Both the position numbers and the translations under genes were made by a program. From positions 2,656,001 to 2,720,000 of the forward strand of contig OZ220696.1 of assembly GCA_965116495.1 (NCBI GenBank): DNA of 64,000 bases, in the 5' to 3' direction. The notes under the pieces were generated by a model. It saw nothing but the letters and a program-made list of their open reading frames with translations, was not told the origin of the DNA and made no database searches. Shown piece after piece: positions 5,614 to 56,654 of this stretch (position 1 is the stretch's first letter; each line of letters begins with the position of its first letter). Origin of the DNA: Gammaproteobacteria bacterium. GTDB taxonomy: Bacteria; Pseudomonadota; Gammaproteobacteria; Eutrophobiales; Eutrophobiaceae.

Positions 5614-6174
5614 CTAACTTTTTTCGGTAGCGACACCCAGGATAATGGCTGTAGAGCAATGATAAATCGTGCTGTTCTCCGTGCCGACGCACCAGTTGAT
5701 GTCGTTATTGGAGAATGCGCGATATGGGGGTTTGTCTCCCACGTTATTGTTACACAGGCAACGGCTGCAAGATGTCTTGCCGCAGCAGTCGTTGTAGGAA
5801 ATGATGTAATTCAGGTTGTCCGCCGGATTTTTGCAGGTGCCTATCCAGGTCATGGGGGACATCTTTGTTCCCGGGGGGCAGGAATTGTGTGTGCCGCCGC
5901 AACAACTGCAAAGGAAACCGTCGATGGCACAGTAGCGCCAGTAATCGCAGGAAGCCGGGTCACCCGGGTCTGCGTCAGGGTTACCACTGGTTTGCGGCGC
6001 AACCCCGTGATACCCACTGCCGTCAGCGCCGCCCGCGGCCCGGGCTACCGGCAACAGGGGGAGAGCCGCGCCGCCGGCCAGAGTCAGACCTATGCGCTTC
6101 AACAGGTGCCGGCGCGAGGTGTTGCCGGCAACCCGGCGGGCGAATCTTTCAGTAATTTTATCGAACCAATACAT
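5614..6174 (-). CDS. mauA: TTQ amine dehydrogenase light (small) subunit, aromatic amine dehydrogenase-like
   Basis: Tat signal SRRHLLK. Cys-rich CDYWRYCAIDGFLCSCCGG, with TTQ-forming Trp in SPMTWIGTC and NDINWC. Confidence 0.93.
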   Translation of the reverse strand: MYWFDKITERFARRVAGNTSRRHLLKRIGLTLAGGAALPLLPVARAAGGADGSGYHGVAPQTSGNPDADPGDPASCDYWRYCAIDGFLCSCCGGTHNSCPPGTKMSPMTWIGTCKNPADNLNYIISYNDCCGKTSCSRCLCNNNVGDKPPYRAFSNNDINWCVGTENSTIYHCSTAIILGVATEKS

Positions 6175-6237
6175 TTAGCCTGCCCTTAGCGTTATTTTGA
6201 TCCTGGTCTCAGCGGCCTGATATTTTCGTGTATGTAC

Positions 6238-6255
6238 GGGGTCAGGTCGCACATT
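6238..6255. repeat. single arm of the GGGGTCAGGTCGCACA REP-like repeat
   Basis: GGGGTCAGGTCGCACATT shares its first 16 nt with the arm at 7460. Confidence 0.65.
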
Positions 6256-6256
6256 A

Positions 6257-7405
6257 TCATCTTGACGCATGGAGAATAAAAGGCGTTTCAAAAGCCCTGC
6301 CGCCGATAAGGCGCAGCCATTCACCGCTATCAGCGGAATAAACGTCCAGATCCATATTACCGTTAGTCACAACCAGGTAAGGTTGCTCCCCCTGGGTTAC
6401 TTCTATGGAGACGCCCCATTCTTTCAAGCTGATGCGCTCAACACGCTTGTTGGCATCCACGTCATAAATCCAGATCTCGCTGCCGCCGCCTTTATGGGAT
6501 CCGTCTTCCCCGTCAGGGTGCATGAGCACGAACAAGCGTCCGCTCGCTTCATGGGCTGTAGTAATCTGCCAGCCGCCCGGACGCCAGTTATCCTGACGGT
6601 CCTCATCCTGCAGTAACGACCAGCCTGCCTGTATGGCAGGATCTGCTGCGTTCATGTCAACAGGATGCACCATGCCCTTGAAGGACGGAAAATAATATAC
6701 CCCGGCTATGACTGCCGGTTTGGCAAAAATCGGGTCGATGTCGGCGTCGAAGAACGCGTCGGTGCGTTCCTGCCTGGTCATCCTGCCGTTTTCATCCAGG
6801 TGGGTGACCAGCATTGTGTTATCACCGCACAGGCTGCCGAAGCTGCGCTGTCCTGACGGGTAGATCATACTGCAACCGGCCAGGAAGATTTCAGCCAGGA
6901 ACGCGCGTTGTTCGATATCGATAACACTGACGGAGGTACCCGGAGTGAAATTGTACAGCAGCAGGAAATTTTCATTATCCAGGAACTGCAGCGTGTTCTT
7001 GTGGGTGACAATCATGCTGCGCTTGGCGTCGGGCAGGACTATCTCGCCTATAGGGGCGAGATTGACCTTGTCATAGATGCTGATCAAATCCGTCTTCTCA
7101 CCGCGCAGACGCCGGGAATATATTGATTCCGCCACGTACATTTCCGGTCTGGTCGTTGCGGCGATAAAGGACGGAAAGTGGGATGAGGGGATGGAGCCTT
7201 TGTAATTACGGTTTTCGGCCGCCACGTCGACCAGGACTACCTTGGCGTCAAGCAGCGAGAAAAAATTGGTGTCATGGGCATACACCCAGGTGTCGGGGTA
7301 GCTTGACGGCAGTGTTTCCACGTTGGGAATTGATTCTGCCGGTAATTCAGCCAGAGATACCGTCGAGATAAAAACCAGCATCAGGCCGAAAATGGCGCGT
7401 TTCAT
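6257..7405 (-). CDS. mauB: TTQ amine dehydrogenase heavy (large) subunit, beta-propeller
   Basis: Sec signal MKRAIFGLMLVFISTVSLA, YNFTPGTSVSVID, WRPGGWQ, GSHKGGGSEIW. Adjacent to mauA. Confidence 0.9.
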   Translation of the reverse strand: MKRAIFGLMLVFISTVSLAELPAESIPNVETLPSSYPDTWVYAHDTNFFSLLDAKVVLVDVAAENRNYKGSIPSSHFPSFIAATTRPEMYVAESIYSRRLRGEKTDLISIYDKVNLAPIGEIVLPDAKRSMIVTHKNTLQFLDNENFLLLYNFTPGTSVSVIDIEQRAFLAEIFLAGCSMIYPSGQRSFGSLCGDNTMLVTHLDENGRMTRQERTDAFFDADIDPIFAKPAVIAGVYYFPSFKGMVHPVDMNAADPAIQAGWSLLQDEDRQDNWRPGGWQITTAHEASGRLFVLMHPDGEDGSHKGGGSEIWIYDVDANKRVERISLKEWGVSIEVTQGEQPYLVVTNGNMDLDVYSADSGEWLRLIGGRAFETPFILHASR

Positions 7406-7458
7406 ATTTGTCTCCCCGAATTTGCTAAATTGAATACCCGGCAGTAGGTATGTAGGTA

Positions 7459-7546
7459 TGGGGTCAGGTCGCACAATGCACACCAGTGATTCGTCTCATT
7501 CCCGGCCTGATACTCACTCACGTGTGCATTGTGCGACCTGACCCCA
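7459..7546. repeat. REP-like inverted repeat with perfect 25-bp arms
   Basis: TGGGGTCAGGTCGCACAATGCACAC (7459-7483) and its reverse complement (7522-7546). Confidence 0.85.
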
Positions 7547-7636
7547 CACCCGCATACATACTCGCCGGGTGCTTTGTTAGTATACCATTAAAAGTTATAG
7601 GACAAGCTGCCCCCTACCCAGCGCGGCCGACCGTAA

Positions 7637-8017
7637 ACTGAACTCAAATTCTGGATTGATGACCTGAATACCCCGGAAACTACCTCATTCTTCCCGGAAC
7701 TCTGGGCATTGGGGAACCATGACCCCTATATTGCCGAGTTGATCGATGACCTGTACGCAAAGGCCAGGTTGCCGTTGAACGAACTGATCCCGCAAATCAA
7801 CCCGACCCTGACCAGGAAAGAGGCGGAGCGGATGGCATTGTACATGTGCGCGGCGATGGAAGGCCTGACCGTCTTCGTGGGAAATGACAAGTCCTGGTCC
7901 AACCAGATCGAGGAGATAAAACGGATCACCATCAGGAACTTCATGACGATGATCAAGAACACGGCCGGCAAGCGTAAGCAAAGTAAGCGGGATGACGCGA
8001 CTGAACAGCCTTTATGA
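7637..8017 (+). pseudogene. C-terminal fragment of a TetR-family regulator, HTH missing
   Basis: Frame opens after TAA at 7634 and reads KFWIDDLNTPETTSFFPELWALGNHDP...AAMEGLTVF, a helical TetR-C-like segment with no HTH. Confidence 0.55.
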
Positions 8018-8084
8018 CTTGCCTTCTCAACCATCTGTGACACACTACGCACCTTCAATAGTGGCAACATAAGGGATTCAGGAC

Positions 8085-40812: not shown

Positions 40813-41829
40813 CTAGAACGACGCAGGCACCGGCGGCAGTTCACCGCTGGCGTAACGTGTCTCCAGTCCCGGTGTCAGGTTCTCCCAGACCAGCAGCATG
40901 GAACGTTTCGGAGAAAAGCCGCGATGGCGTATGTCCGCCGGCATGCAGGACACGTCCCCGGCTTTCATGGTAACCACGCACATCGGGGCAGCTGTATCCT
41001 TGTCAGCTACTTTCCAGGTAATCTCATCGGACATCTGGATAAACCATTCCACCCTGTCGTTGCCGTGGTCCACCGGCAGGATATGTTCTTCCGACGTCGG
41101 GCAGTAAGCGCTGGCTCTCACAATGGAAACGATAGACGGATTCCAGGTAACCGGCGAGCGGGACAGGTATTTGAACAGGTTGAAGGCCGCGAGTTGTCCT
41201 TCGAAACCAGCTTCGGCATGGACTTCCGGCTCGGACTGGTCCACATCAGCGAACTGCCGGTTGACCGGCCGCCCGTTTTCATCGGAACGGACCGGGGTGT
41301 CGCCGGGCAGGCTGACGAAACGGTCCGCCAGTTCCCGCTGAAAATTGACAGCTTCATCGTTGTTGCCGTTTTTAGGCCCGCGCCCGCTGCCGGTTTCAAG
41401 CGGCGCGGCAAAGGGGTTGAAACCGGCATTGGTCCAATCCAGCATCAAGCCTTTAAAACAGGCAAGTAACACGCCCGGTTCAAACCGTTCGGTAAAGTCG
41501 GTGCCGGAATCCTTGTAGGCCTGGTTATAGGCACCCATGAAGACGTCGACGCTGTCGTAGTTATTTACGGTGCCGAACACCTCATCAAAGTTGACCCAAC
41601 CGTAAAAAAATCCCCATGCCACGTCGCGTATCATCGAGCGCATAAAATTCTCCACGTCCATCACGTGGGTCACGGTCGGACACTGGATACGGGCAAAATA
41701 CTCATCCCGTTCAAACTTGAACGAGCCGATTTCAAAGCGCTTGTAGCCGTTGACCGGGTGCGGCGCGCTTTCACGATGCGCTCCGGTAAGAATCGGCAGG
41801 TCGGTAATTTGTTCTGCTATGGCTGCCAT
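40813..41829 (-). CDS. hydroquinone 1,2-dioxygenase large subunit (HqdB/HapD/PnpC2 type, cupin)
   Basis: FERDEYFARI, RDVAWGFFYGWVNFD, CPTSEEHILPVDHGNDRVEWF, MPADIRHRG, MLLVWEN. Confidence 0.88.
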   Translation of the reverse strand: MAAIAEQITDLPILTGAHRESAPHPVNGYKRFEIGSFKFERDEYFARIQCPTVTHVMDVENFMRSMIRDVAWGFFYGWVNFDEVFGTVNNYDSVDVFMGAYNQAYKDSGTDFTERFEPGVLLACFKGLMLDWTNAGFNPFAAPLETGSGRGPKNGNNDEAVNFQRELADRFVSLPGDTPVRSDENGRPVNRQFADVDQSEPEVHAEAGFEGQLAAFNLFKYLSRSPVTWNPSIVSIVRASAYCPTSEEHILPVDHGNDRVEWFIQMSDEITWKVADKDTAAPMCVVTMKAGDVSCMPADIRHRGFSPKRSMLLVWENLTPGLETRYASGELPPVPASF

Positions 41830-41847: not shown

Positions 41848-42348
41848 TCAGTGCTGGCAGATTTCCGCCCATTTTTCGACGGACTCATCACCCAGTAAGG
41901 TTTGCAGTAAAATCACGCTCAATTCACCGGCGCGAAACCGGTAGGCTGCGCCGGCCGGCAACAGGACCAGGTGGCCCCGCGTCGCCTTGATATGCCCCAT
42001 GACCTGGCCCTCCGGTTGGCCGGCCAGTTTAACGGATCCCTCCTTCTCTTCGGGTGGAACCAGCCCGCCGTCCGCGGGCTTTATAAAACGGGCTTCCATG
42101 CTGCCCTGCATGAGCAACGCGGTCTCATCGTGACTGCAGATATACCAGGGGCTGTCTCCTTCCGCGCGTATCACTTCAACGGTGTTCTCCAGGTTTTTAG
42201 CGATGACAATTCGCTCCCAGGGATCTGCATTGCCGGCCACCTCGAACATATTGGAAAACAGGTAATCCCGCGCATCTTCATTACCGGTAATTTCAACGCC
42301 GCCTTTGCTGTAGCTATCGATGCTTCCGAATACGGTAGTTACGGACAT
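41848..42348 (-). CDS. hydroquinone 1,2-dioxygenase small subunit (HqdA/HapC/PnpC1 type)
   Basis: TVFGSIDSYSKGGVEI, YLFSNMFEVA, HDE, LLPAGAAYRF, SVEKWAEIC. Confidence 0.88.
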   Translation of the reverse strand: MSVTTVFGSIDSYSKGGVEITGNEDARDYLFSNMFEVAGNADPWERIVIAKNLENTVEVIRAEGDSPWYICSHDETALLMQGSMEARFIKPADGGLVPPEEKEGSVKLAGQPEGQVMGHIKATRGHLVLLPAGAAYRFRAGELSVILLQTLLGDESVEKWAEICQH

Positions 42349-42672: not shown

Positions 42673-43347
42673 ATGGGCATTAATCCAAAAGTGCGCCAGA
42701 CAGATCAGCAGACATCCCTTCCCGTCGTTAAAAAAATGCGCAAGGACGCCATACTGAAACGCAAGGAACTGATTAAAATCGCCACTGAAATGTTCCTGGA
42801 ATTGGGCTATGAAAAAGCCAGCATGAATAATCTCGTCAAGCGTTCCGGATCATCAAAAAGCACCATATACAAACATTTCCGCAGCAGGCAGGCGCTTTTC
42901 ATTGCCGTGATAGATGAGAAATTACGCGATCATCTGGCCCCCATTGAAAACCTGGATCTTACAACCCTGAGCATTGAAGAAGGCCTGAAACTGATCGGGA
43001 GGACAGGGATAAAGGTAATCACATCGAAAGATCACATAAACCTGTGCCGAATCATATATCCCGAAGCTGAACGGATACCTTATGTAGGCAAGACCTACTA
43101 CGAACATGGGCCAAAACGCGGTATGGAGGGCGTGGTAAAATATCTATCTGCCATGGTGGAAAGTGGCAGGATCAGGTGCGCGGATCCTTCTTCGGCAGCA
43201 GAACACTTCTGGGGTATGATACTGCACAAGCCCATGCTGGAAATGTATTGTGGTATCAGAGGTCCTTTAACGACCCGGGAGCAAAAAAACTATATAGACA
43301 GAGTTGTCGACTCTTTCATCTCTGCTTTCATTGTAGAGATTGAATAA
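42673..43347 (+). CDS. TetR/AcrR-family regulator
   Basis: ATEMFLELGYEKASMNNLVKRSGSSKSTIYKHF HTH; YYEHGP in the C-terminal domain. Confidence 0.9.
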   Translation: MGINPKVRQTDQQTSLPVVKKMRKDAILKRKELIKIATEMFLELGYEKASMNNLVKRSGSSKSTIYKHFRSRQALFIAVIDEKLRDHLAPIENLDLTTLSIEEGLKLIGRTGIKVITSKDHINLCRIIYPEAERIPYVGKTYYEHGPKRGMEGVVKYLSAMVESGRIRCADPSSAAEHFWGMILHKPMLEMYCGIRGPLTTREQKNYIDRVVDSFISAFIVEIE

Positions 43348-43351
43348 CCGG

Positions 43352-43647
43352 CTATTGTGCTTTAAACCAGGTGTCAAGGTAGTCAAAAAACTGTTCCTCC
43401 TCATCGGTATGGCAGCGGAAGCCAATATACCCGTCGGGACGTATCAACAATAACTGGCCGCTATCGATTTTGCCATAGCATTCGGCAAATTCCCCTTTGG
43501 CATCCGTAACCAACCCTCTTTCCGGGTCAATTGTATCCGGTCGTCCACGCCATGCCCATGGGCCATGATGATATCGTGCATGGCATGGGTACCGGCGATC
43601 ACCTGTGCGCCGACGATCAATACAGGTTTATGTTGATCCGGAATCAT
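43352..43647 (-). pseudogene. relic of a PcpB-like FAD-dependent (halo)phenol 4-monooxygenase with two large deletions
   Basis: Three collinear fragments: MIPDQHKPVLIVGA | QVIAGTHAMHDIIMAHGHGVDDRIQLTRKEGW | (frameshift) VTDAKGEFAECYG...LLLIRPDGYIGFR...DYLDTWFKAQ*. Confidence 0.72.
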
Positions 43648-43825
43648 GCTAATCCCTGCGTCATCGATTTGTTCATGTCGATCTCAGAATTAATTCTTGA
43701 ATATTGTAGCTGAAGCCACTAAACTGTACAGGATGGTTCGGTTTAGCATGATGACCACTCGAAGAATTTAGTTTATATTTCATAAGCAATAACATAACAA
43801 ATTTATATCCCGGAGGAAAAAGAAC

Positions 43826-44794
43826 ATGTCCGATAAACTGCCAGGTACAAGCCTGACCGGCCACCATCACATAACGATAGGCGTCGGCAACGCACAGGAA
43901 GACTTCGATTTTCACACCAAGGTACTGGGACTGAAATGCGTCAAGCGCACCTTGTTCTACGACGGGGCAACCCCGGTTTACCACCTGTATTACGGGAATG
44001 ACATCGGTGATGAAAGTACGCTGCTCACCACGTTCCCGGTGGCCCACATAGGGGTAAAGGCAAAGGAAGGCAGCGGTCAGGTCAGTTACGTCAGCTTGTC
44101 CGTGCCTGAAGATTCATTGCCTTACTGGAACAACCGTCTCCGGGAACATGGTTTCGAAGTGACGGAAACCGAACGTTTCGGAGAAAAACACCTCGATTTC
44201 CGTTCCCCGCACAACATCCGCCTGTCCATGGTCGGTGTCGATGACGATACGCGGGCGCCGTATTCCGATGGGCCGGTTCCTGCCGAGAACATGATCCGCG
44301 GCACCCACGCAGCCGGCGTCTCCACCCGCGACATGGAATTCATGGAAGAGTTTCTGCAGGTGGCGTGGGGCTCCCACAAGGAAGCAGACGACAGCAACCT
44401 GGTTCGCTTCACCATGGGCGAGGGCGGCACCGGCACCTATACGGACTTCGAAATCGAACCGGACCGTAAACCGGGGTCCTGGACTGTGGGCGAAGGCGCA
44501 ATCCATCACATGGCCTATAACGTGCCTACCCGGAAAGATCAGGATGCCATCAAGTTTTTCACCGAGGGACTCGGCTATACGGATTTTTCCGACGTGAAGG
44601 ATCGCGGCTATTTTGATTCCATATACATCCGTACCCCCTCCGGCGCCCTGTTTGAAGCCTGTTGTTCACACAAACCTGCTTTCACTTGCGATGAACCGTC
44701 AGAAACACTTGGGACAAAGCTGATGATGTCGCCGCAAATCGAAGCACATAAAGATGAGGTGCTGAAAGTTATCGGTGAAATCAAGGATGATTGA
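43826..44794 (+). CDS. PcpA/LinE-like (halo)hydroquinone 1,2-dioxygenase (VOC family)
   Basis: HHHIT, VKRTLFYDGATPVYHLY, TTFP, GAIHHMAY, KDRGYFDSIYIRTPSGALFE (2-His-1-Glu). Confidence 0.85.
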   Translation: MSDKLPGTSLTGHHHITIGVGNAQEDFDFHTKVLGLKCVKRTLFYDGATPVYHLYYGNDIGDESTLLTTFPVAHIGVKAKEGSGQVSYVSLSVPEDSLPYWNNRLREHGFEVTETERFGEKHLDFRSPHNIRLSMVGVDDDTRAPYSDGPVPAENMIRGTHAAGVSTRDMEFMEEFLQVAWGSHKEADDSNLVRFTMGEGGTGTYTDFEIEPDRKPGSWTVGEGAIHHMAYNVPTRKDQDAIKFFTEGLGYTDFSDVKDRGYFDSIYIRTPSGALFEACCSHKPAFTCDEPSETLGTKLMMSPQIEAHKDEVLKVIGEIKDD

Positions 44795-44888: not shown

Positions 44889-45953
44889 ATGATGAATTTT
44901 CACTATGCAGCGCTTCCCTGGAACATCATATTCGCGGCCGGCGCCCGGAAACGCCTGCCCGGGGAACTGGCGCAACTCGGCTACTCCCGCGCACTGGTGC
45001 TGGCAACACCGAACCAGTCGGATATCGGGCAGGAGATCGTCAAACTGCTGGGCGACAAGGCGGTGGGACTGTTCGACCGGGCCATGATGCACGTGCCAGT
45101 TGAGACACTCGAACAGGCAATGGCGGAGGTAAAACGGCTTGACGCCGACTGCTCCGTTTCCGTGGGCGGCGGCTCAACCACCGGCCTGAGCAAGGCACTG
45201 GCTTTCCACCTCGACCTGCCCAATATCGTGCTGCCCACCAGTTACGCCGGTTCGGAGATGACCAATGTCTGGGCAGTGACACAGGACAACCGCAAGGTTA
45301 CCCGGCGGGATAACGTTGTTGTGCCGACGCTGACTATCTATGATCCGGAGCTGACCCTGACGCTGCCGCCGGCATTCGCGGCCGCCAGCGGCATGAACGC
45401 CATGGCGCAGGCCGTTGCCAATGCAGCTGCGGAAGACGCCAATCCCATAAGTTCGGTTCTTGCCCTGGAGGGAATCCGCACCCTGGCGCGCAGTCTGCCT
45501 GCCATCATTTCCGAACCCGAAAACATGGACGCGCGTACCAAAGCCCTGTACGGCGCCAGCCTGGCTGCCGCCGCGCTGGGAACAGGCACAACAGGCCTGC
45601 ATCATCGTCTGTGCCACACTTTCGGCGGCACGTTTAACACCCCCCATGCCGAGACCCATACAGTCCTGCTGCCGCACAGTGTCGCCTACAACGCCGGCGC
45701 CAGGCCCGACACTACGCGCAGGGTCACCGAAGCCCTGGGAGTCAGTGATGCCGCAACCGGACTGTTTGAACTGGCCGGAAAGCTTGGCGCCCCCACTGCA
45801 CTAAAAGACATCGGGGTAAAGGAGACGGACCTGGATGAAGCCGCCGCAGTAGCCGTGGAAAATCCGATAAAAAATCCCGAGCCGGTTACCAGGGAAAGAA
45901 TTCGCGCCTTGCTTGAAAACGCCTGGCACGGCCATCCCCCCCCGCCTGTGTAA
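44889..45953 (+). CDS. maleylacetate reductase
   Basis: [50 protein letters not shown]. Confidence 0.9.
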
Positions 45954-45958
45954 CCGTT

Positions 45959-47326
45959 ATGAGACCCGTTCCGCAGATCACCGTGCAAGAGGCCGCCGCC
46001 AGGGTCCATTCCGGCGACGTGCTTATCGTGGGCGGCTTCGGTATGACGGGTAACCCGACCAGGGTGATGCACGCCATTGCCGAAACTGACCTGACCGATC
46101 TCACTTATATCGGCAATAACGTCGGAGAACCCGGGCTCGCCGGCGGGCGTTGCCTGCGCAAGGGACAGTTCAAGAAAGTCATAGGCTCGTTCTTTACCAG
46201 CAACCCGGAAGCCGTTGCGGCGGCACAGTCCGGGGAAGTCGAATTCGAACTCTTGCCCCAGGGCACCCTGGCTGAGGCAATCCGCGCCGGCGGGGCCGGT
46301 ATCGGCGGTTTCTTTACACCCACCTCAGCCGGAACGCCGCTGGCGGAAGGGCGCGAGACAAAGCTTATCGACGGAACGGAAATGGTATTTATTCCCGCGC
46401 TGCATGCCGATGTCGCGATCATCAGGGCCTGGCGCGCGGATACGGCCGGCAACCTGCAGTACCGTATGACCGAAAACAATTTTAACCAGGCGGCAGCTAC
46501 TGCCGCCGACCTGGTCATTGCAGAGGTGGAGGAAATCGTATCGGCCGGCGCGCTCGATCCTGATTTCATCCATACCCCGGGCTGTTTTGTCGATTACCTG
46601 GTCCAGGCCGCGCTTGACCCGGAGCACCTGGGTACCTCGGCATCCGTGGCGGCGAGCCTGAAAAAGGTGGATGATACCCGCATGATGATGGCCGGGATAG
46701 CACTGGCGGAATTGAAGCGGGGCGATATCGTCAACCTGGGGGTCGGCATACCCACCCTGGTAGCGGACCTGATCAAGCCGGAAGACGGCATCATCCTGCA
46801 CTCTGAAAACGGGATGTTGGGCGTGGGCCCCGAACCGGAATCCGGCGGCGCCATGGAGTACCCGGTCAATGCCGGCAAAGTACCGGTCACCGCGCTGTCG
46901 GGCGCCAGCTATTTCGACAGCGCCACCTCTTTCGCCATGATCCGGGGAGGCCACGTGGACGTGGCCATCATGGGCGGACTACAGGTGGACGAGCAGGGCA
47001 GCCTGGCCAACTGGGCGGTACCGGGCAAACCCCTGCTCGGCGTCGGCGGCGCCATGGACCTGGCGTCCGGCGCCAGGAAGCTGATCGTCACGATGACCCA
47101 CTGCGACAGGAACGGCAACTCCAAGGTGGTTCCCCGTTGCAACCTGCCCCTGACCGCGCGCAAGGCCGTCGATTTACTGATCACGGACCTGGCGGTATTT
47201 GACTTCGACGCATCGGGCATGCGCCTGGTGCGGCTGCTGCCGGGTATTACTGAAGATGAAGTAAGGGCCGGGACGGCGGCGGATTATACGGTGGCCCTGG
47301 CCGGCCGGGGTAACGGAGGATCATGA
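45959..47326 (+). CDS. 3-oxoacid (probably 3-oxoadipate) CoA-transferase, fused A+B subunits
   Basis: GGFG and [15 protein letters not shown] (A) followed by [14 protein letters not shown] (catalytic Glu) and GVGGAMDL (B) in one ORF. Confidence 0.88.
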
Positions 47327-47874
47327 TCTTCGACCCTGCCGTCAATGTCATCGCCGCGCTGATACTCAGCTACGTGTTCGTCCTGGCGGGACTGCACAAA
47401 TGCACGGCGCCGGCGGAGTTTGCAGCCACCCTGGCGAATTACAAAATTCTCCCGGAAAACCTGACCCGCCAGGGCATCTACCTGATCCCCGTTGCGGAAA
47501 TCATGACCGGGGTCGCTCTGCTGATTCCGGCCACGGCACAGCTCGCGGCATTGTCGGCAGGTGCGTTACTGTGCATCTACATTGCCGCCATCGGTATCAA
47601 CCTGCTGCGCGGCCGGCGCAATATCGACTGTGGTTGTGGCGGGCCGGCCCAGAAACAAAGCATCAGCGAATGGATGATCGTGCGCAACGCCCTGCTGGTG
47701 CTGCTGGCCTGTATAGCCGGCAGCCAGGCCGAGCCGCGCACACTGCTCTGGTTCGATTGGTTGATAATCATCCTGGCGGCCGTCATGGGTTGCCTGTTCT
47801 ACAATATCATTAACCAGTTACTGGTAAATAAAGACCTGCTGAAATCGCTGGCCCATGAGGAATACCATGCTTGA
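47323..47874 (+). CDS. mauE: amine dehydrogenase maturation membrane protein MauE
   Basis: TM helices, [26 protein letters not shown]. Confidence 0.9.
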
Positions 47875-48478
47875 AGCCTTAATTGTTTCCAACCTGCTGC
47901 TCTGGATCATCGTGGTGATACTGGGGGTGATGGTGTTTGCCCTGGTCAGGCAGATAGGCGTACTCTATGAACGGGTGGCGCCGGCAGGCGCCCTGATGGT
48001 GAATCAAACCCTGCGTCCCGGTGACGCGGCCCCCGAGATGGATTTGCTCACCATCGAAGATAAAAAAATCCGTATAGGCGGTGTCCGGGAACCCGCGCGC
48101 AGCCTGCTGCTGTTTTTTCTCGCTCCCGATTGTCCGGTATGCAAGACCCTGCTGCCGGTGCTGTTTTCGGCACGGAAAGAAGAAAGCGGATGGCTGGACA
48201 TCGTGCTGGCCAGCGACGGTCCTGCCGGAGAACACAGGAAGTTCATCGAGCAGCAGAAACTGTCACCCTTTGATTACGTGCTGTCGGAAATACTCGGCCG
48301 CAGTTACGGGGTAGGTAAACTGCCGTACTCGGTCCTGATCGATGAGCAGGGCAAAGTCGTTACCATGGGCATCATCAATTCCAGGGAACACCTGGAGAGC
48401 CTGTTCGAAGCCAAGGAGCGGGGCGTTGCCTCCATCCAGGAATACGTGAAAAAGTATCACTCCGCAGAACCCGGCTAG
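47867..48478 (+). CDS. mauD: amine dehydrogenase accessory thioredoxin-like protein MauD
   Basis: ALVRQIGVLYERVAPAGAL, CPVC, SREHLESLFEAKERGVASIQ. Confidence 0.92.
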   Translation: MLEALIVSNLLLWIIVVILGVMVFALVRQIGVLYERVAPAGALMVNQTLRPGDAAPEMDLLTIEDKKIRIGGVREPARSLLLFFLAPDCPVCKTLLPVLFSARKEESGWLDIVLASDGPAGEHRKFIEQQKLSPFDYVLSEILGRSYGVGKLPYSVLIDEQGKVVTMGIINSREHLESLFEAKERGVASIQEYVKKYHSAEPG

Positions 48479-48498: not shown

Positions 48499-49641
48499 AT
48501 GACTCAGGACGCTGCTGCAGCAAGAATTCATCGCGGACTGAAAGGAGTTTATTTCGACCGATCGCCGGCAACGTTCATCGATGGTCAGGCTGGTGAACTC
48601 CGCTATTACGGTTATTCGATCGATGACCTGGCCGCAAATTCCAGTTTTGAAGAAACTGCCTACCTGTTGTTGCACGGTGAGTTACCAAACAGCGCACAGT
48701 TCCGCGCATTCGATGAGCAGCTCAAGACGGAGCGGGTACTGCCGGAGCCTCTCTATGACATCATCAGCGCCATTGCTGATGCTCACCCGATGGACGTCCT
48801 GCGAACGGCAGTTTCTGCATTGGCTGCTTATGACCCGGAAGTCCAAGATTGTTCTGCAGAGGCAGTTCTGCGAAAAGGCGTTCGACTCACTTCGCAAGTG
48901 CCAATGATCGTGGCTACCCATCATAGAGTCAGAATTGGCAAACCCCCGATTGCACCGGATATGAACTTAAGCCATGCAGCCAATTTTTTGTATATGTTAC
49001 AGGGAGAGGCGCCTGGTGAAGGCGCTGCAAGATTGATGGATCTTGATTTTATCCTGCACGCCGAACATGGATCGAATGCGTCCTCGTTCACAGCGAGAGT
49101 TGTCACCGGAACAGATGCTAACCTGCATGCGGCGATCACAGCAGCCATAGCGGCACTCTCGGGACCTGCACATGGTGGTGCTGCCGAAAATGTTATACAG
49201 ATGGCCCGTGCAATTGGAGATCCCAGGAATGCGAAGCAGTACGTCAAAGCCAAAAGGAGTAACAGGGAAGCCATCATGGGTTTTGGTCATCGGGTTTACC
49301 GCGCAGAAGATCCGCGGGCGAAACATTTGCGTCATGGCGTCGAACGGCTGTCGAGAGAAAAGGGTGAACCGCGCTGGAATCAGATTCTTCAGGCCCTGGT
49401 CGAGGCCATGCAACCTTATGCGCGCCATGGCGTCAACGTCAATGTCGATTTTTACTCCGGTGTGATGTATCACTTGCACGGCATCCCACAGGATATCTTT
49501 GTACCGATCTTCGCAGTAGGACGTGTCCCGGGCTGGACATTACAGGTATTGCAACAGCTTGAAAACAATATTCTGATCAGACCGCTGTTAAATTATAACG
49601 GTCCAGGACTGCGTCCTTACATCCCCATGGAAGATCGTTAG
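48499..49641 (+). CDS. citrate / 2-methylcitrate synthase family protein
   Basis: [41 protein letters not shown]. Confidence 0.9.
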
Positions 49642-49651
49642 CGGGAAAACC

Positions 49652-50623
49652 GTGTCATTTGTTCAACGTTTCATAGAAAGAACACGGGCAGTCTCTGCAC
49701 GACTTGTGTTACCCGAGGGAGACAATGTCCGGATGCTCGCGGCTGCAAGTAGAATCGCGATTGAAGGAATGGGGGAGGTATTCCTTATCGGTAAGCCTGA
49801 GAGTATCGAGGTGTTGGCAGCAGACAATAATATATCGCTGGAAGCCTGCACAATCGTCGATCCGCGCACAAGTGGCCGTAGGCAATACTATGCTGAATTG
49901 TATACCAGTCAGCGTGGTAAAGTGAATTCCGGGATGGCGCTCCGGGCCATGCACAAGCCGCTTTACTTCGGAGCGATGATGGTAAAGGCAGGCGACGCCG
50001 ATGTGCTGCTTGCGGGTATCGACAACCCGACGCGGAGGGTTATCGAAGCTACGCAATTGTGCATTGGTCTCGCTGATGGTATTCAGACACCATCTAGTTT
50101 TTTTATCATGCTCCCGAAGGACAGCAAACCGCTCGTTTTTGCGGACTGTGCCGTCAATGCTGATCCCACGGCAGAAGAACTCGCTGATATTGCCATCACG
50201 TCGGCCAGAAATGCGGAGCGACTACTTGATGATGAACCTCGCGTAGCGCTGCTTTCGTTTTCGACAAAGGGCAGCGCCAGTCATTCGCACGTCGATAAGG
50301 TCGTGCGTGCAGTATCGCTTGTTCGGGAGCGGGCGCCTGGACTCGCGGTCGATGGAGAACTACAGGCGGATAGCGCGCTCATTCCTGCGATCGCGGAAAT
50401 CAAGTCGGTCTCGTCGGGTGCTGTAGCCGGCCATGCTAATGTGTTGATATTCCCGGACCTGGATGCCGGTAACATCGCCTACAAGCTTGTCCAGCACCTG
50501 GGTCATGCCGATGCCATCGGACCTGTACTGCAGGGGTTTGCCAAACCTGTAGCTGACTTGTCCCGGGGAGCAAGTGTAGAGGATGTAGTTGCCACCGCGG
50601 CAATCATGGTTTCGATAACATAG
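49652..50623 (+). CDS. pta: phosphate acetyltransferase
   Basis: [46 protein letters not shown]. Confidence 0.9.
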
Positions 50624-50689
50624 CCCGGTTATCCCCCCGGGAAGCTTGTTACTGCGAGGTTTCCATTATTGCAGACACGGGCGGCCAGC

Positions 50690-51715
50690 CTATTTCCCTG
50701 CAACATATTTTTCCAGCTTTTCCAGGTAATGTGCCTTGGCATGTTCAGAAATCCAGGCGGAATTAAACGCGTTACGTGTCAACCGGACAATTTCATCCTT
50801 TGTATAGCTGCCATGTTTGTGCATTTCTATAAAAATATTATTCAGGTAGCGGCTTGCAAATTCCGCCGGGTCATCCGTGTTGATGGAAACGAGCAGTCCC
50901 AGTTCGAGCATTTCGCGGATACTCTCCAACCGCCGGGGAGCAGGATCTGAAGGCCGCCAGGTAGGGCACATCGTGAGGGGGATCTGCAACTCTCGAACCA
51001 TTGCAGTTAATTCCGGGCTGTCGATAACATGCAGGCCATGATCGATACGTTCTACCTGCAATAGTTCCAGGCATTGGCGGATATGTTCGATGGAATTCGG
51101 CTGGTTGCAATCACAATGTGAGGTCAGACGATAGCCTTCTTCCCGTGCTCGCCTGAATACCTCCACGAACTTCAAAGCGAAATTATTCACTTCATAATTA
51201 TCCAGCCCCACCCCGATGATCTCATCTTTAAAAGGTTTAGCCATATCGAGTATTTCCATGGAGGATTCGGCACTATGATCCCTCTGGAAACTCATTATCC
51301 AGTTTGATTCGATCCCAAAATCACGTCTTCCGTCCCTCCTTGCCTGATTAAGTGCGTTGAAGTATTCGGAAAATACAAGTCCCCGACTGATATGTACCTG
51401 TGTTTCGAACATGATTTCCAGATAGACGATGTTCTCTTCAGCAGATTTCTTAAAAAATGCGTAAGCGAGTTCATAGAAATCCTGCCCTGTTTGTAATACA
51501 CGGAGACAGTTCTCATGGTATTTCAAAAAATTATCCAGCGCCGGTTCGCCATAATCCTGTGCCGCCCACACTTCATCTTCATCCCGGTAGGGGATATCCA
51601 CACCGTTGCGTTCTGCGAAGCGCAATAACATCAGTGGTTCTACACATCCCTCAATGTGGACGTGCAGTTCCGCCTTGGGCATTCCGGTAATGAAGTCTTT
51701 TAAACCGTATGACAT
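50690..51715 (-). CDS. adenosine/adenine deaminase-family amidohydrolase, atypical active site
   Basis: PKAELHVHIEG, ERIDHG, NTDDP. The HAGE motif is replaced by HCDCNQ. Confidence 0.82.
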   Translation of the reverse strand: MSYGLKDFITGMPKAELHVHIEGCVEPLMLLRFAERNGVDIPYRDEDEVWAAQDYGEPALDNFLKYHENCLRVLQTGQDFYELAYAFFKKSAEENIVYLEIMFETQVHISRGLVFSEYFNALNQARRDGRRDFGIESNWIMSFQRDHSAESSMEILDMAKPFKDEIIGVGLDNYEVNNFALKFVEVFRRAREEGYRLTSHCDCNQPNSIEHIRQCLELLQVERIDHGLHVIDSPELTAMVRELQIPLTMCPTWRPSDPAPRRLESIREMLELGLLVSINTDDPAEFASRYLNNIFIEMHKHGSYTKDEIVRLTRNAFNSAWISEHAKAHYLEKLEKYVAGK

Positions 51716-51798
51716 TATTCACTTATGGGTTAACACGGCCAGCCCTGTGGCCGCAGGCAACAATTTGCTGTTGTATTGGACACTGAGTCCTGAGCCGC

Positions 51799-53142
51799 TC
51801 AAGTATAACTATCAAGCACCTCGCGGATGATTCCGCACATATCGCCTATTTCCGATTTTTCGATAATGAAAGGTGGCGCAATCAACGCCGCATCTCCCGT
51901 GGTCTTGACATGTACGCCGGCATCAAACAGGCGCTTCTGGAAGTCGTGGCCTCGCATGCCCGGTCTCTCTTCAACCAACAGCTCAATAGCAGCCAGCATC
52001 CCGTAACCGCGGATATCCGTGATCAGCGGATGCTCCTGCAGGGCAAAAACTGAATCAAGAAAGTAACCGGAGAGGTCTTTGGCCCGCTGAAACAAGTTTT
52101 CCTTCTCGTAAATATCCAGTGTTGCCAGGCTTGCAGCGCAGGCGGCAGGATGACCTGAATAGGTGTATCCATGGAAGAATTCAATCATGTCTTCTTCGGC
52201 GGCGCCTACGACGGTATCATATATCCGGTCGTGGACGGCAACGCCCGACATGGGCTGGGCAGCATTCGTCATGGCTTTGGCCATCGTTATGATGTCGGGC
52301 GTCACGCCGAATTCCTGCGCAGCAAATGCCGAACCGGTGCGTCCGAACCCGGTGATCACCTCATCAAAAACCAGCACTATGTCATATTGATCGCAAATTT
52401 CACGCAGCCGCTCCAGGTAACCTTCGGGAGGCACCAGCACACCCGTGGAACCGGCGATTGGCTCGATGAAACAGGCGGCTATCCGACTCTCGCCATACGT
52501 CTTAATAATCCGTAACAGATCGTCGGCAAGGTCTTCACCGCCGTCACCGGGTTGACCTTTAATAAATTTCTGGTCGGCTGTTGCCGTACTGCGCATATAG
52601 GCCACACCCGGCAGGACACTGGTGAAAGCCTCCCTGTTTTTGACGATACCGGCGAGTGACGTACCCCCGATATTCACTCCGTGATAAGCCCGTTCACGGG
52701 AAACAAATATGTTCTTTTGCGATTGCCGTCTCGCAAAGTTATAAGCCATGACAATTTTCATGGCCGTATCAACGGCCTCCGAGCCCGAATTTCCATAGAA
52801 GATGTGATTCAACGGTTCCGGCGTTATAGCCGCTAAACGCCTCGCGAGTTCGAACGATTTGGGGTGTCCGCGCAAAAAGGGTGAAGTATAATCAAGTTCC
52901 TGAAGCTGCTCATGCACCGCAGTGGCGATCTCGTGACGGCAATGACCACAGGGAACGGAAAACAGGCCGGATGAACCGTCAATAAGGCGTTCACCCCGGT
53001 TATTCCATACATGGATCCCTTTCCCTCTTACGATCAGCCGGGGCTCCCGCTTGAAAGATTTATTGTCGGTAAACGGCATCCAGTGGTTTTCCAGGTCAGC
53101 ACGGGAACAGTGCCGGTTGGTGATTTCACTTTTATCTGTCAT
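51799..53142 (-). CDS. class III omega-amino acid:pyruvate aminotransferase (candidate taurine transaminase)
   Basis: HWMPFT, NSGSEAVDTA, YHG, FDEVITGFGR, MAK, HGYTYSGHP. Confidence 0.85.
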   Translation of the reverse strand: MTDKSEITNRHCSRADLENHWMPFTDNKSFKREPRLIVRGKGIHVWNNRGERLIDGSSGLFSVPCGHCRHEIATAVHEQLQELDYTSPFLRGHPKSFELARRLAAITPEPLNHIFYGNSGSEAVDTAMKIVMAYNFARRQSQKNIFVSRERAYHGVNIGGTSLAGIVKNREAFTSVLPGVAYMRSTATADQKFIKGQPGDGGEDLADDLLRIIKTYGESRIAACFIEPIAGSTGVLVPPEGYLERLREICDQYDIVLVFDEVITGFGRTGSAFAAQEFGVTPDIITMAKAMTNAAQPMSGVAVHDRIYDTVVGAAEEDMIEFFHGYTYSGHPAACAASLATLDIYEKENLFQRAKDLSGYFLDSVFALQEHPLITDIRGYGMLAAIELLVEERPGMRGHDFQKRLFDAGVHVKTTGDAALIAPPFIIEKSEIGDMCGIIREVLDSYT

Positions 53143-53267
53143 GACATCAACCACTTCTGCTAATCTAATGGTCATTCTGTTCACCTGTATAATGTGATTA
53201 TGCCAACTTTATCTTGCCGGTCATCGGAGATATTACGGGGCGGCCCTGTCCTCAGGTAGTGCCAGAA

Positions 53268-54755
53268 ATGAGTAAGCGATCACACCAGCTAATGTGGACA
53301 CAACTGATACAACTGGAAGGGTCTGCCCAGGAAAGTTTGCAGATGCAAGTGAGAAAAGGGCTTACCAGGGCAATCCTTGAAGGCAGGATAAGCATGGATT
53401 TGCCGCTCCCTTCAGGTCGTGAACTGGCACAGCAACTGAAAGTCTCCCGCAATACGATCGTGCTGGCCTATCAACGCCTTGTAGATGAAGGCTACCTTAT
53501 CAGCCGGGAGAGACAAGGCTATTTTGTCAATCCGGCGATACTCAGGTCCGCACCACTGTTTCAAGATGAGCAGGATATAACTGATACAGCCACACCGAAT
53601 TGGCAGACCCGGCTTAATATCGACCTCTCTGTACAACGTAACATTCAAAAACCGGTTGATTGGCAAAAATATAAATATCCTTTTATCTACGGTCAGTCAG
53701 ACCCTGCCTTATTTCCCATAGCAGATTGGCGGGAATGTGTACGCCAGTCGCAGAGTGTGGCCCTGATTGCAGCAGGGAGTCTGGACTATATTGACCAGGA
53801 TGATGAAGTGCTGGTAGAGGAGTTGTGTATCCGGGTTTTACCCAGGCGGGGCATATGGATCAAATCGGAAAACCTGTTAGTCACGATCGGCGCCCAGAAC
53901 GCCTTGTCAGTCATCTCTCAATTGCTTTTCAACAAAGATACCGTGATAGGTATTGAAAATCCCGGCTACCCCGATGCCCGGAATTTATTTTTATTACGCA
54001 CCGAACAACTGGTGTTACTCGATGTTGACGAAAACGGTCTGGTCATCAATGACAAAATCGACAGGTGCGATTATGTCTATGTGACCCCCAGCCACCAATC
54101 ACCTACAACCGCCACCATGCCTTTAAACAGGCGCAAAGCTTTACTGGAAAAAGCGAATACGCACGACCTGATAATAATAGAAGATGATTATGAATCGGAG
54201 GCAAATTATATCCACCAGGCAAATCCGGCTTTAAAAAGCCTTGATAAGGACAACCGGGTCATCTATTGCGGCAGTTTGTCGAAATCGCTGGCGCCGGGTC
54301 TGCGCCTCGGGTTTCTTGTCGCAGACCCTGAGTTGATACAACAAGCACGTATGCTGCGGCGGCTTTTGTTACGTCATCCCCCTGCGCTGGTACAACGTAC
54401 AGTTGCCTTGTTTCTACAGCTTGGACATTATGACTCCCATGTCAGTCGTATTAACCAGGTGTTAAAGAGACGTTGGGAACACATGTGCGCGGCGTTGGAA
54501 CAATACCTGCCTGATGCAACGGACATTCCAGAATTCGGCGGTACGGCATTCTGGGTAAGGGGCCCCGCTGCATGTGACGCTCGTCTGCTCGCGCAGTCAT
54601 GTGCCGTACAAAGCATCTTGATTGAACCGGGAGATGTTCATTTCGGCCAGGACCACCCCCCGATGAATTATTTTCGTCTCGGTTTCTCTTCAATAACAGA
54701 GGGCAGGATAAATGACGGTATCTCCCTGATCAGTAAGAAAATAGACCGTATGTGA
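53268..54755 (+). CDS. tauR: MocR/GabR-family regulator, TauR-like
   Basis: GntR wHTH (LPSGRELA..VSRNT) plus aminotransferase-like domain (TPSHQSPT, EDDY, SKSLAPGLRLG), directly upstream of xsc. Confidence 0.82.
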   Translation: MSKRSHQLMWTQLIQLEGSAQESLQMQVRKGLTRAILEGRISMDLPLPSGRELAQQLKVSRNTIVLAYQRLVDEGYLISRERQGYFVNPAILRSAPLFQDEQDITDTATPNWQTRLNIDLSVQRNIQKPVDWQKYKYPFIYGQSDPALFPIADWRECVRQSQSVALIAAGSLDYIDQDDEVLVEELCIRVLPRRGIWIKSENLLVTIGAQNALSVISQLLFNKDTVIGIENPGYPDARNLFLLRTEQLVLLDVDENGLVINDKIDRCDYVYVTPSHQSPTTATMPLNRRKALLEKANTHDLIIIEDDYESEANYIHQANPALKSLDKDNRVIYCGSLSKSLAPGLRLGFLVADPELIQQARMLRRLLLRHPPALVQRTVALFLQLGHYDSHVSRINQVLKRRWEHMCAALEQYLPDATDIPEFGGTAFWVRGPAACDARLLAQSCAVQSILIEPGDVHFGQDHPPMNYFRLGFSSITEGRINDGISLISKKIDRM

Positions 54756-54782
54756 CAGACAGGATACTGATAATTTCGTCTT

Positions 54783-54815
54783 CTGGAACTTGGGATACAA
54801 CATAACTGGCTCTAT
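54783..54815 (+). promoter_or_regulatory. candidate TauR direct-repeat site upstream of xsc
   Basis: CTGGAACTTG and CTGGCTCTAT with a 23-bp period, resembling the CTGGACYTAA direct repeats reported for TauR. The match is degenerate. Confidence 0.4.
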
Positions 54816-54899
54816 TTTCCGCATGCTTACATATGTACAGTGAGCCTTTCTGCAATGAGCGTCCACGCCACAAACCATGATTACAGGTAAAATCAGACA

Positions 54900-56654
54900 A
54901 TGACACGAATGAGCCCAAGCGAAGCCCTTGTGGAAACAATGGTCGCCAACGGTGTAACCAGGATCTTCGGCATTATGGGTTCCGCTTTTATGGATGCCAT
55001 GGATATCTTCGAGCCTGCCGGGATATACATGGTGTCGGTGGTACATGAACAGGGGGCGGCACACATGGCGGATGGATATTCGCGGGTGAGCGGCCGCCAT
55101 GGCGTGTGTATCGGCCAGAACGGACCGGGAATCAGCAATTGTGTTACGGCCATCGCTGCCGCGTATTGGGCTCACTCTCCGGTGGTCATCATCACGCCGG
55201 AAGCAGGCACCATGGGCACGGGACTCGGCGGGTTCCAGGAAGCCAACCAGTTGCCCATGTTCCAGGAGTTCACGAAATACCAGGGGCACGTCAATAACCC
55301 GAAACGCATGGCTGAAATCGCGGGTCGCTGCTTCGAGCGGGCTCTCTCGGAAATGGGCCCCGCCCAGTTAAATATTCCACGGGATCATTTCTATGGTGAA
55401 CTAGACGTGGAAATCCCGCAGCCGCGCGCCCTGGACAGGGGACCCGGTGGCGCTACGAGTTTGAATGAAGCGGCAGAGCTTTTAGTCAACGCGACATTCC
55501 CCGTCATAATCTCCGGCGGTGGTGTCGTGATGGGTGATGGTGTGGATGAATGTAAAGCGCTGGCCGAACGTCTCGGCGCCCCGGTAGTCAACAGTTATCT
55601 GCACAACGATTCCTTCCCTGCAAGCCACCCGCTCTGGTGCGGACCCTTAGGATACCAGGGGTCCAAAGCCGGTATGAAACTCATCAGTAAGGCTGACGTC
55701 GTATTAGCGCTTGGCACCCGGCTGGGACCCTTTGGGACATTGCCCCAGTACGGAATGGAATACTGGCCGGAGGACGCGCAAATCATCCAGGTGGATGCGG
55801 ATCACAAAATGCTGGGGCTGGTAAAGAAGATTTCTGTCGGTATCTGTGGCGATGCCAAAGCCGCCGCCGCCGCATTACTGTCCCGCATTGACGATAAATC
55901 CCTGGCTTGTGACGCCAGTAAGGCGCAGCGCGCAAAAGTTATCGAGCAGGAAAAAGAAACCTGGGAAAAAGAACTGGATGAATGGCGCCATGAGAAAGAC
56001 GATTTCAGCCTGAAAGTGATAGCAGAGGCAGAGGACAAATTGCTGTCCCCGCGCCAGGTCCTGCGGGAACTGGAAAAGGCCATGCCGGCCGATGTCATGG
56101 TATCCACCGACATCGGCAATATCTGTTCGGTGTCGAACAGCTATCTGCGCTTTGAACGACCGCGCAGCATGTTTGCCGCCATGAGTTTCGGCAACTGCGG
56201 TTACGCCTTCCCTACCATCATCGGCGCCAAACTGGCCGCCATGGACCGTCCGGCGGTCTCCTATGTAGGTGACGGCGCCTGGGGCATGAGCATGGGTGAG
56301 ACCATGACCTGTGTGCGCGAGGGCATCCCGGTCACTTCGGTGGTGTTCAACAATATGCAATGGGGCGCGGAGAAGAAGAATCAGGTGGATTTCTACGGGC
56401 GCCGTTTTGTTGCCGGCGACCTGAAGAACCAGAGCTTTGCCGGTATTGCGCGGGCCATGGGCGCTGAAGGTATTGTCGTTGATAAACTCGAAGACGTCGG
56501 CCCTGCCCTCACCAGGGCCATAGATGCCCAGATGAATGACGGCAGGACGACGATACTCGAGATTATGTGTACCCGGGAGTTAGGTGATCCGTTCCGTCGG
56601 GACGCCTTATCCAAACCGGTGCGCCATCTGGATAAGTATCAAAACTACACCTGA
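54900..56654 (+). CDS. xsc: sulfoacetaldehyde acetyltransferase
   Basis: FGIMGSAFMD, HEQGA, QNGPG, LGYQGSKA, GDGAWGMS, WGAEKKNQVDFY, LGDPFRRDAL. Confidence 0.95.
   Translation: MTRMSPSEALVETMVANGVTRIFGIMGSAFMDAMDIFEPAGIYMVSVVHEQGAAHMADGYSRVSGRHGVCIGQNGPGISNCVTAIAAAYWAHSPVVIITPEAGTMGTGLGGFQEANQLPMFQEFTKYQGHVNNPKRMAEIAGRCFERALSEMGPAQLNIPRDHFYGELDVEIPQPRALDRGPGGATSLNEAAELLVNATFPVIISGGGVVMGDGVDECKALAERLGAPVVNSYLHNDSFPASHPLWCGPLGYQGSKAGMKLISKADVVLALGTRLGPFGTLPQYGMEYWPEDAQIIQVDADHKMLGLVKKISVGICGDAKAAAAALLSRIDDKSLACDASKAQRAKVIEQEKETWEKELDEWRHEKDDFSLKVIAEAEDKLLSPRQVLRELEKAMPADVMVSTDIGNICSVSNSYLRFERPRSMFAAMSFGNCGYAFPTIIGAKLAAMDRPAVSYVGDGAWGMSMGETMTCVREGIPVTSVVFNNMQWGAEKKNQVDFYGRRFVAGDLKNQSFAGIARAMGAEGIVVDKLEDVGPALTRAIDAQMNDGRTTILEIMCTRELGDPFRRDALSKPVRHLDKYQNYT

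Follow-up and report, generated by a model that had tools for sequence, protein, structure and literature searches.

The stretch of DNA analysed here (the window, 64,000 nucleotides; contig OZ220696.1, positions 2,656,001 to 2,720,000) belongs to a gammaproteobacterium of the Eutrophobiaceae whose genome (G000) is a single contig, 99.5% complete. We analysed mauE and mauD (together mauED), whose roles in maturation of the tryptophan tryptophylquinone (TTQ) cofactor are described in a preprint (bioRxiv 10.64898/2026.03.05.709764). In the window the pair lies at the end of an operon resembling the ring-cleavage genes of pentachlorophenol degradation, and a sequence-only reading had taken this arrangement for a candidate (halo)aromatic amine catabolic system. 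The genes and predicted sites around the junction are as follows.

40813..41829, minus strand: large subunit of a hydroquinone 1,2-dioxygenase (HqdB/PnpD type), E 6e-130 to 5m21
41848..42348, minus strand: putative small subunit of the same dioxygenase, so named because it adjoins the large-subunit gene; it matched no family
42673..43347, plus strand: TetR/AcrR (AefR-like) regulator, likely the repressor of the operon
43364..43635, minus strand: remnant of a PcpB-like flavin (FAD) monooxygenase gene, two fragments covering only residues 335-373 and 478-527 of an intact relative
43697..43725, plus strand: predicted sigma-70 promoter TTGAAT-17-TAAACT, consensus score 8/12
43721..43744, plus strand: predicted TetR operator AAACTGTAC-N6-GTTCGGTTT, overlapping the -10 box of the pcpA promoter
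43826..44794, plus strand: PcpA/LinE-type hydroquinone 1,2-dioxygenase (pcpA), E 1e-79 to PcpA 4huz and 43.7% to LinE
44889..45953, plus strand: Fe-ADH family protein, maleylacetate-reductase-like (mar), a name that rests on its family and neighbours; no second copy found
45959..47326, plus strand: fused 3-oxoacid CoA-transferase of PcaIJ/ScoAB type (coat), its C-terminal tail different in each relative
47323..47874, plus strand: mauE, sole copy over cut-off in the genome, with a CXC motif
47867..48478, plus strand: mauD, single copy, thioredoxin fold with CPVC, overlapping mauE by 8 nt

MauE scored 101.7 bits against PF07291 (cut-off 27), has CGC at position 103 as its periplasmic CXC motif and matched MauE of Paracoccus denitrificans at 40% over 98 aa. 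MauD, a thioredoxin-fold protein, reached 185.9 bits against TIGR02661, slightly short of the equivalog cut-off of 188.6, and matched Paracoccus MauD at 43% over 194 aa; the name is backed by the position of the gene beside mauE. The start of mauD is likely 47867 rather than 47855, because GAGGA precedes it and the alignment to Paracoccus MauD begins at residue 1. The coordinates bear out what had been read from the sequence, namely that mauE overlaps the coat stop (ATGA, at 47323), that mauD overlaps mauE and that mauBA lies about 40 kb off. The 8 nt shared by mauE and mauD, ATGCTTGA, correspond to an overlap (-8) found in 22/22 loci measured. Translational coupling of coat and mauE, which had also been proposed, finds no support as a conserved device: with starts picked automatically, the two genes overlap by -4 or -8 in 8/15 linked genomes and are separated by gaps of 9-107 bp in 7/15, and the coat tails at the junction are unrelated among relatives. 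ATGA-type overlaps are common in the genome (169/1571 adjacent same-strand pairs of crudely called open reading frames), and the coat-mauE gene overlap itself is ordinary.

The coat-mauE junction was found in 16/23 genomes of the genus, G000 counted among them (in G012 its status was judged from DNA at a contig edge). A quick rpoB tree was built with 25 rows, 24 of them labelled, and with support from the SH-like approximate likelihood-ratio test (SH-aLRT) only; G024, G016 (no rpoB match), G007 (fragmented) and G029 are not in it. On the 24 labelled rows the linked state takes 2 changes: the junction was gained once, basally in an 18-row clade (SH-aLRT 95), and lost once, in G005/G006/G011. 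A DUF4153 gene precedes mauED in G005 and G006, where pcpA lies elsewhere; G017 has mauED by itself, and the 278 bp ahead of mauED in G007 are not coat. We also analysed 48 distant mauD loci, drawn from 78 by leaving out 22 loci of the same family and 8 with weak matches of thioredoxin-like type. Many span less than 20 kb, and in this set pcpA, mar, coat, pnpCD, pcpB and the glutathione S-transferase (GST) gene were found at 0/48; 46/48 had both mauB and mauA, and 44/48 a cytochrome gene. Amongst 18 metagenomic pcpA loci, most of them short, one carried mauED (1/18; 94% identical, of the in-genus type), and three further ones had coat without mauED, a thiolase gene following coat in one of them (L293). 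The linkage is not unique to this genome, as the sequence-only reading required, but it is one inherited event, and these sets gave no independent recurrence. No description of it was found in the open-access literature, supplements not covered.

Related genomes preserve what appears to be the older arrangement. Outgroups retain a TonB-dependent receptor (TBDR) gene followed by mauBEDA and cytc, and mauB-mauE-mauD-mauA is intact in G010, G013, G028 and G030. Since MauB of the window falls in the clade formed by the MauB proteins of these four genomes, we infer that mauED once belonged to this copy of mauBA (paralog 1). In G003 and G019 a cytochrome gene still comes after mauD, which would fit a duplication with reciprocal loss. 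What is left of paralog 1 in the window is the following.

5614..6174, minus strand: TTQ small subunit (mauA), paralog 1, with a twin-arginine translocation (Tat) signal, 14 Cys, and both TTQ Trp and both Asp retained
6257..7405, minus strand: TTQ amine dehydrogenase large subunit (mauB), paralog 1; in outgroups the native partner of mauED
7643..7981, plus strand: C-terminal remnant of a TetR gene; in relatives this TetR controls TBDR-mauB-mauA, and here its N-terminus and the TBDR gene are gone

The mauB-mauA pair (5614-7483) lies on the strand opposite to mauED. G000 encodes three pairs of TTQ small and large subunits, against one mauE, one mauD and one monoheme cytochrome c, whose gene adjoins paralog 3, so mauED likely serves all three dehydrogenases. 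The earlier idea that the maturation of one dehydrogenase is tied to the operon gets no support from this count. Throughout the genus, TTQ small subunits (1-4 per genome), exactly one MauE over cut-off and the monoheme cytochrome c were each found in 22/23 genomes. G011 lacks the small subunits, MauE and the cytochrome, and pcpA is gone from it too. MauE and MauD might instead make up a DsbB/DsbA-like disulfide pathway of general use, whose clients would not be limited to the TTQ subunits and whose location would be unrelated to amines. The CXC motif of MauE would suit such a role, and MauE homologues are reported to substitute for DsbB in E. coli and to occur mostly without MauA (10.64898/2026.03.05.709764). 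G000 has DsbB and DsbC, however, and MauE is lost exactly in the sole genus genome without TTQ subunits; we consider this explanation very improbable.

The dehydrogenases have the features of TTQ enzymes: the small subunit is rich in Cys, is exported by the Tat route and carries the two TTQ Trp and the two Asp, and the large subunit is a beta-propeller. All three large subunits scored best to the aromatic amine dehydrogenase (AADH) of Alcaligenes, as did the small subunit, and paralog 2 scored equally to one chain labelled methylamine dehydrogenase (MADH). The large-subunit score was 186 bits to AADH, against 143 to MADH. The MADH models were reached neither by the large subunit (TIGR02658, 144 vs 454 bits) nor by the small one (TIGR02659, 183.5 vs 196.9 bits). 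The assignment as AADH-like, closer to the Alcaligenes enzyme than to most MADH, stands as a prediction. The likeness to Alcaligenes faecalis AADH (PDB 2agl/2h3x) extends to the retained TTQ Trp and catalytic Asp and to the presence of MauE, MauD and a monoheme cytochrome c without a dedicated MauG. The aau cluster of that species, however, which we take to be ordered aauBEDA plus the monoheme cytochrome c gene, differs from G000, where one detached mauED and one cytochrome are common to three paralogs. In the mau operon of Paracoccus denitrificans (mauFBEDACJG) likewise, mauED is not separated from mauB and mauA as it is here. Assuming the pocket residues to have the roles that they have in AADH, the D-x-x-F motif is retained and the QGL loop is not, the aligned residues being MIV, EIL or STL across paralogs. 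Since these motifs differ among paralogs and from AADH, the amine substrates would not be readable from the pocket. Window MauB has Ser in its KRGMIVTH loop where orthologues have Gly.

No gene for amicyanin, MauG, MauF or MauJ was found beside the mau genes of the window, and G000 has a single CCP_MauG match, an SCO fusion next to a methanethiol oxidase gene (at L065:9109-12367 such an oxidase, over the NF052453 cut-off, accompanies the SCO-MauG fusion). MauG was rejected as a required TTQ-forming partner, since TTQ subunits occur in G006, G013 and G017 without any CCP_MauG match; the full set with TTQ small subunits and no such match is G006, G013, G017, G024, G030, G031 and G043. The monoheme cytochrome c that co-occurs with the TTQ genes is a candidate for MauG-independent TTQ maturation or for the electron acceptor.

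The neighbours of the three paralogs differ. Paralog 3 adjoins paaK and paaZ in several relatives and lies about 15 kb from them in G000, which would lend indirect support to aromatic amine oxidation. Paralog 2 adjoins genes for a ring-hydroxylating alpha subunit and an old yellow enzyme (OYE)-type flavoenzyme. In relatives paralog 1 comes with a TetR and a TonB receptor of its own and stands beside trpB2; G000 has lost the receptor gene and the N-terminal half of TetR by deletion (window 7405-8085). The trpB2 gene (window 8085-9455) adjoins paralog 1 in 13/13 paralog-1 loci (L151-L163), a neighbourhood that may point to indole or tryptamine salvage. Inverted repeats resembling repetitive extragenic palindromes lie at window 6238-6253 and 7460-7545; the 16-mer has 98 exact copies genome-wide, so the repeat between mauB and mauA is uninformative as a specific scar.

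Control of the operon was analysed through the predicted TetR operator. The motif is present in 13/19 aligned pcpA leaders, where it overlaps a promoter of the form TTGA(A/C/T)T-17-TAA(A/C)CT, and the spacing of this promoter is retained in 12/13 pcpA leaders that have the operator, as well as at the sites ahead of the TonB receptor. On G000 the operator matrix scored 41 bits at pcpA and 36 bits at a second copy (C1:3877775) ahead of a TBDR gene, the next best match reaching 17. Within the genus 21 matches were found in 14/23 genomes (control 0), 13 of them before pcpA, by construction, and 8 before one and the same TonB receptor. This receptor gene (G000:C1:3877775-3880274; L261:15776-18278) lies downstream of kdtA, an arrangement seen in 8 genus genomes, and shows 97% identity between G000 and G022 and about 57% to others. 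Operator presence tracks the neighbouring TetR gene: the 4/4 pcpA genomes without this TetR are also without the motif, G002 has the TetR and no operator, and G014 retains the receptor site alone. From this tracking we infer that TetR binds the predicted operator at both pcpA and the TBDR gene; for its ligand there was no informative solved relative. The operator was absent from the mauBA loci scanned in G000 and relatives, apart from a lone weak match of 15.5 bits in L184, the best scores upstream of the three mauB genes of G000 being negative, and it was absent from the leader of the divergent HqdAB-type pair. Co-regulation of mauBA with the ring-cleavage operon thus finds no support at the mauBA loci scanned.

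We saw no clear terminator between pcpA and mauD, and no conserved embedded mauE promoter at synonymous sites in coat, which suggests that mauED likely rides on the pcpA-operon transcript and that its client enzymes are controlled separately. The search for an embedded element was a weak test, in which the 3' half of coat showed a diversity at fourfold sites of 0.24-0.37 per 30 codons, similar to the rest of the operon (mean 0.33-0.38). Rfam families gave 0 matches. A promoter of its own, within coat or in the gap, would deprive the adjacency of regulatory meaning. A weak promoter-like site at 46914-46941 (score 9/12), the gaps of up to 107 bp in seven genomes, the pyrimidine-rich leader ahead of mauE in linked and unlinked genomes alike, and mauE alone in G017 or after non-coat DNA in G007 would all agree with such a promoter. 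Single promoter-like matches are uninformative, however, because 14 were observed against 7.4 expected in shuffles, and the fourfold-site diversity and the lack of a clear terminator also count against it. We regard an own mauED promoter as distinctly unlikely.

The operon itself resembles the pentachlorophenol pathway of Sphingobium chlorophenolicum (PcpB, PcpA, PcpE) and LinE in its PcpB-like (in relatives), PcpA-like, maleylacetate-reductase-like and GST genes. In that pathway PcpB para-hydroxylates halophenols, PcpA cleaves 2,6-dichlorohydroquinone and PcpE gives 3-oxoadipate (PMC3975901, PMC3318906). The PcpA-like VOC protein scored 271 bits to 4huz against 163 to MhqO, which places it in the PcpA/LinE class. 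It retains aligned His15, His228 and Glu277, which we take to be the Fe(II) ligand triad. An intact PcpB homologue, with 47% over 518 aa to PcpB of Sphingobium chlorophenolicum, was found in 4/23 genus genomes, the window gene being fragmentary and short of full length, and the GST gene, presumably for a glutathionyl-hydroquinone reductase, was intact in 11/25 loci screened. Unlike in Sphingobium chlorophenolicum, the genes form one compact cluster with an HqdAB-type dioxygenase and a CoA-transferase, to which mauED is appended, and the predicted regulation is repression by TetR and not the LysR-type PcpR. Neither PcpD nor PcpC turned up, no search having been aimed at either. The large-subunit match and the small-subunit gene upstream of it liken the dioxygenase pair to HqdAB/PnpCD (PDB 5m21, 4zxa), from which the locus differs in that the pair is divergent from the pcpA operon and that the cluster holds no 4-hydroxymuconic semialdehyde dehydrogenase. 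In G006 (L146), where the cluster retains pcpB, mar and the CoA-transferase gene are separated by two inserted genes, for a TonB receptor and a GcvT-like demethylase.

Because relatives have a PcpB-like phenol monooxygenase as the entry enzyme, halophenols rather than amines are the probable input, and the native feed of the operon is likely phenols or quinols. Since pcpA has kept 89-94% identity though pcpB is mostly lost, another source of hydroquinone must exist. Searches of G000 found no enzyme bridging arylacetate (4-hydroxyphenylacetate) to hydroquinone. An HpaB-like gene (C1:1464792-1466369) was rejected as a TcpA/HadA halophenol 4-monooxygenase, because its product reached 633/593 bits with chains of the SgcC/HpaB type but only about 100 with TcpA/HadA; it groups with ortho-hydroxylases. 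At this place (L252:7060-11369; G000:C1 ~1462060-1466370) genes for the HpaB/SgcC-type monooxygenase, a DUF1329 protein and a hydroxyquinol 1,2-dioxygenase lie together, likely as a second maleylacetate source for the single reductase of the window. As conventional sinks G000 has paa genes and homogentisate dioxygenase.

Amongst 20 matching sequencing runs, 1/20 was labelled sponge metagenome and 1/20 viral metagenome, the rest bearing codes. A contig of the sponge run (1487 bp, 39 differences) spans the coat-mauE junction, so a close relative with this junction is present in a sponge metagenome. Sponge association of the genus is likely, and for G000 itself it is predicted. Aplysina sponges contain 4,6-dibromohomogentisamide, 2,6-dibromobenzoquinone and bromotyramines (PMC3229238); the feed might thus be ready-made host quinols or products of amine breakdown. 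Two studies have proposed that other sponge symbionts degrade haloaromatics aerobically (PMC7313196, PMC6081418).

These compounds bear on whether the junction was selected as a haloamine regulon, in which TetR would sense a halogenated aromatic and release TBDR uptake, ring cleavage and mauED-dependent TTQ maturation, with bromotyramine-like amines feeding the haloquinol pathway. The junction in 16/23 genomes, the AADH-like subunits, the sponge-metagenome contig, the need for a different feeder where pcpB is lost, candidate aldehyde-oxidising enzymes elsewhere in G000, and the bromotyramines and dibromo-hydroquinone acetamides among the sponge metabolites that PMC3229238 mentions would be in keeping with this. 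The junction has, however, a single origin and is broken in G005/G006 and non-adjacent in G007, where both systems are retained, and 0/48 distant loci are linked. The mauBA loci scanned have no operator, paralog 1, which in relatives goes with a TetR of its own, has lost both TBDR and regulator in G000, no enzyme from 4-hydroxyphenylacetate to hydroquinone was identified (the HpaB-like gene grouping with ortho-hydroxylases), and the paa and homogentisate sinks are available. We hold such a regulon to be rather unlikely, a bromotyramine route as such being possible. Taken as a whole, the sequence-only interpretation has partial support. A wider version, in which a sponge-symbiont TetR sensing host bromo-aromatics would open the TonB receptor and the Pcp-like operon, a single mauED would gate three or four TTQ enzymes, bromotyramine would pass aerobically via dibromo-hydroquinone to 3-oxoadipate, and PcpB and PcpA of pentachlorophenol degradation would have been recruited from this natural pathway, appears unlikely.

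The reading that we favour, with somewhat better than even confidence, is that mauED is the single maturation pair for three AADH-like TTQ enzymes, that a single ancestral rearrangement likely brought it to the end of a predicted halophenol/halohydroquinone operon, and that it likely borrows the promoter of this operon and is no marker of a bromotyramine pathway. The ancestral TBDR-mauBEDA-cytc cluster would have come apart, probably because it was duplicated and each copy then lost what the other kept, so that tetR-TBDR-mauBA and mauED(-cytc) ended up at separate sites. The detached mauED would have needed any upstream promoter, as in the relatives where it follows the DUF4153 gene or stands alone. 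Halo-hydroquinones would come from the host or from the PcpB-like monooxygenase, which 4 genomes have intact and the window as a fragment; the PcpA-like and HqdAB-like dioxygenases would cleave the ring, maleylacetate reductase would yield 3-oxoadipate, and the CoA-transferase would activate it. TetR would repress the operon and one TonB receptor through one operator, and the amine enzymes would feed other sinks, at least one of them phenylacetate (paaK/paaZ).

Several points weigh against this reading. The junction is kept in 16/23 genomes across the depth of the clade, and the tight overlap in about half of the junctions, reached via different coat tails, fits selection for co-expression. 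With pcpB intact in only 4/23 genomes, amine catabolism could be the missing hydroquinone source; sponges also make bromotyramines and dibromohomogentisamide/dibromobenzoquinone (PMC3229238), and G011 lost both its TTQ genes and pcpA. Tight repression would starve all three TTQ enzymes of their sole mauED, so an accident would explain the arrangement only if the operon is leaky or always induced, and co-transcription from pcpA to mauD is a prediction only.

All enzymes of the locus are members of known families. A genus that is likely sponge-associated has conserved a compact PcpB/PcpA/maleylacetate-reductase cluster, with a 47% PcpB homologue in a habitat rich in bromo-aromatics. The predicted TetR operator would define a two-site regulon, ring cleavage and one TonB receptor, and offers a handle on the inducer. 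With three or four AADH-like enzymes per one MauE/MauD and one cytochrome c, and with some genomes without any MauG-family gene, the genus is a clean system for how AADH-type TTQ forms.

Downstream of mauD, outside the conserved unit, lies one further block.

48499..56654, strand not assigned: citrate synthase-pta-deaminase-aminotransferase-MocR-xsc taurine block, a neighbour

The pathway had been suggested as possibly feeding this citrate synthase. Its gene is found in 5/23 genomes, after mauD in 4, and was rejected as a member of the unit on this count and on a step in DNA identity near 48300, close to the 3' end of mauD, from 70-88% upstream to mostly 90-99% to G016/G022 in the taurine block. 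GC content at third codon positions drops from about 0.7 to 0.5 into the block. Judged by its sequence, the taurine block is a neighbour recently exchanged between genus members, the citrate synthase gene with it.

Two observations concern other parts of the genome. Window 38907-40265 encodes an IS1182-family transposase with 6 identical copies in the genome. At L255:11152-14604 (G000:C1 ~1953150-1956600), with Rieske genes around it, an open frame joins an N-terminal FAD-monooxygenase part to a C-terminal oxidosqualene-cyclase-like part; it scored 730 bits against TIGR03463, under the cut-off of 851, and possibly belongs to bacterial sterol synthesis.

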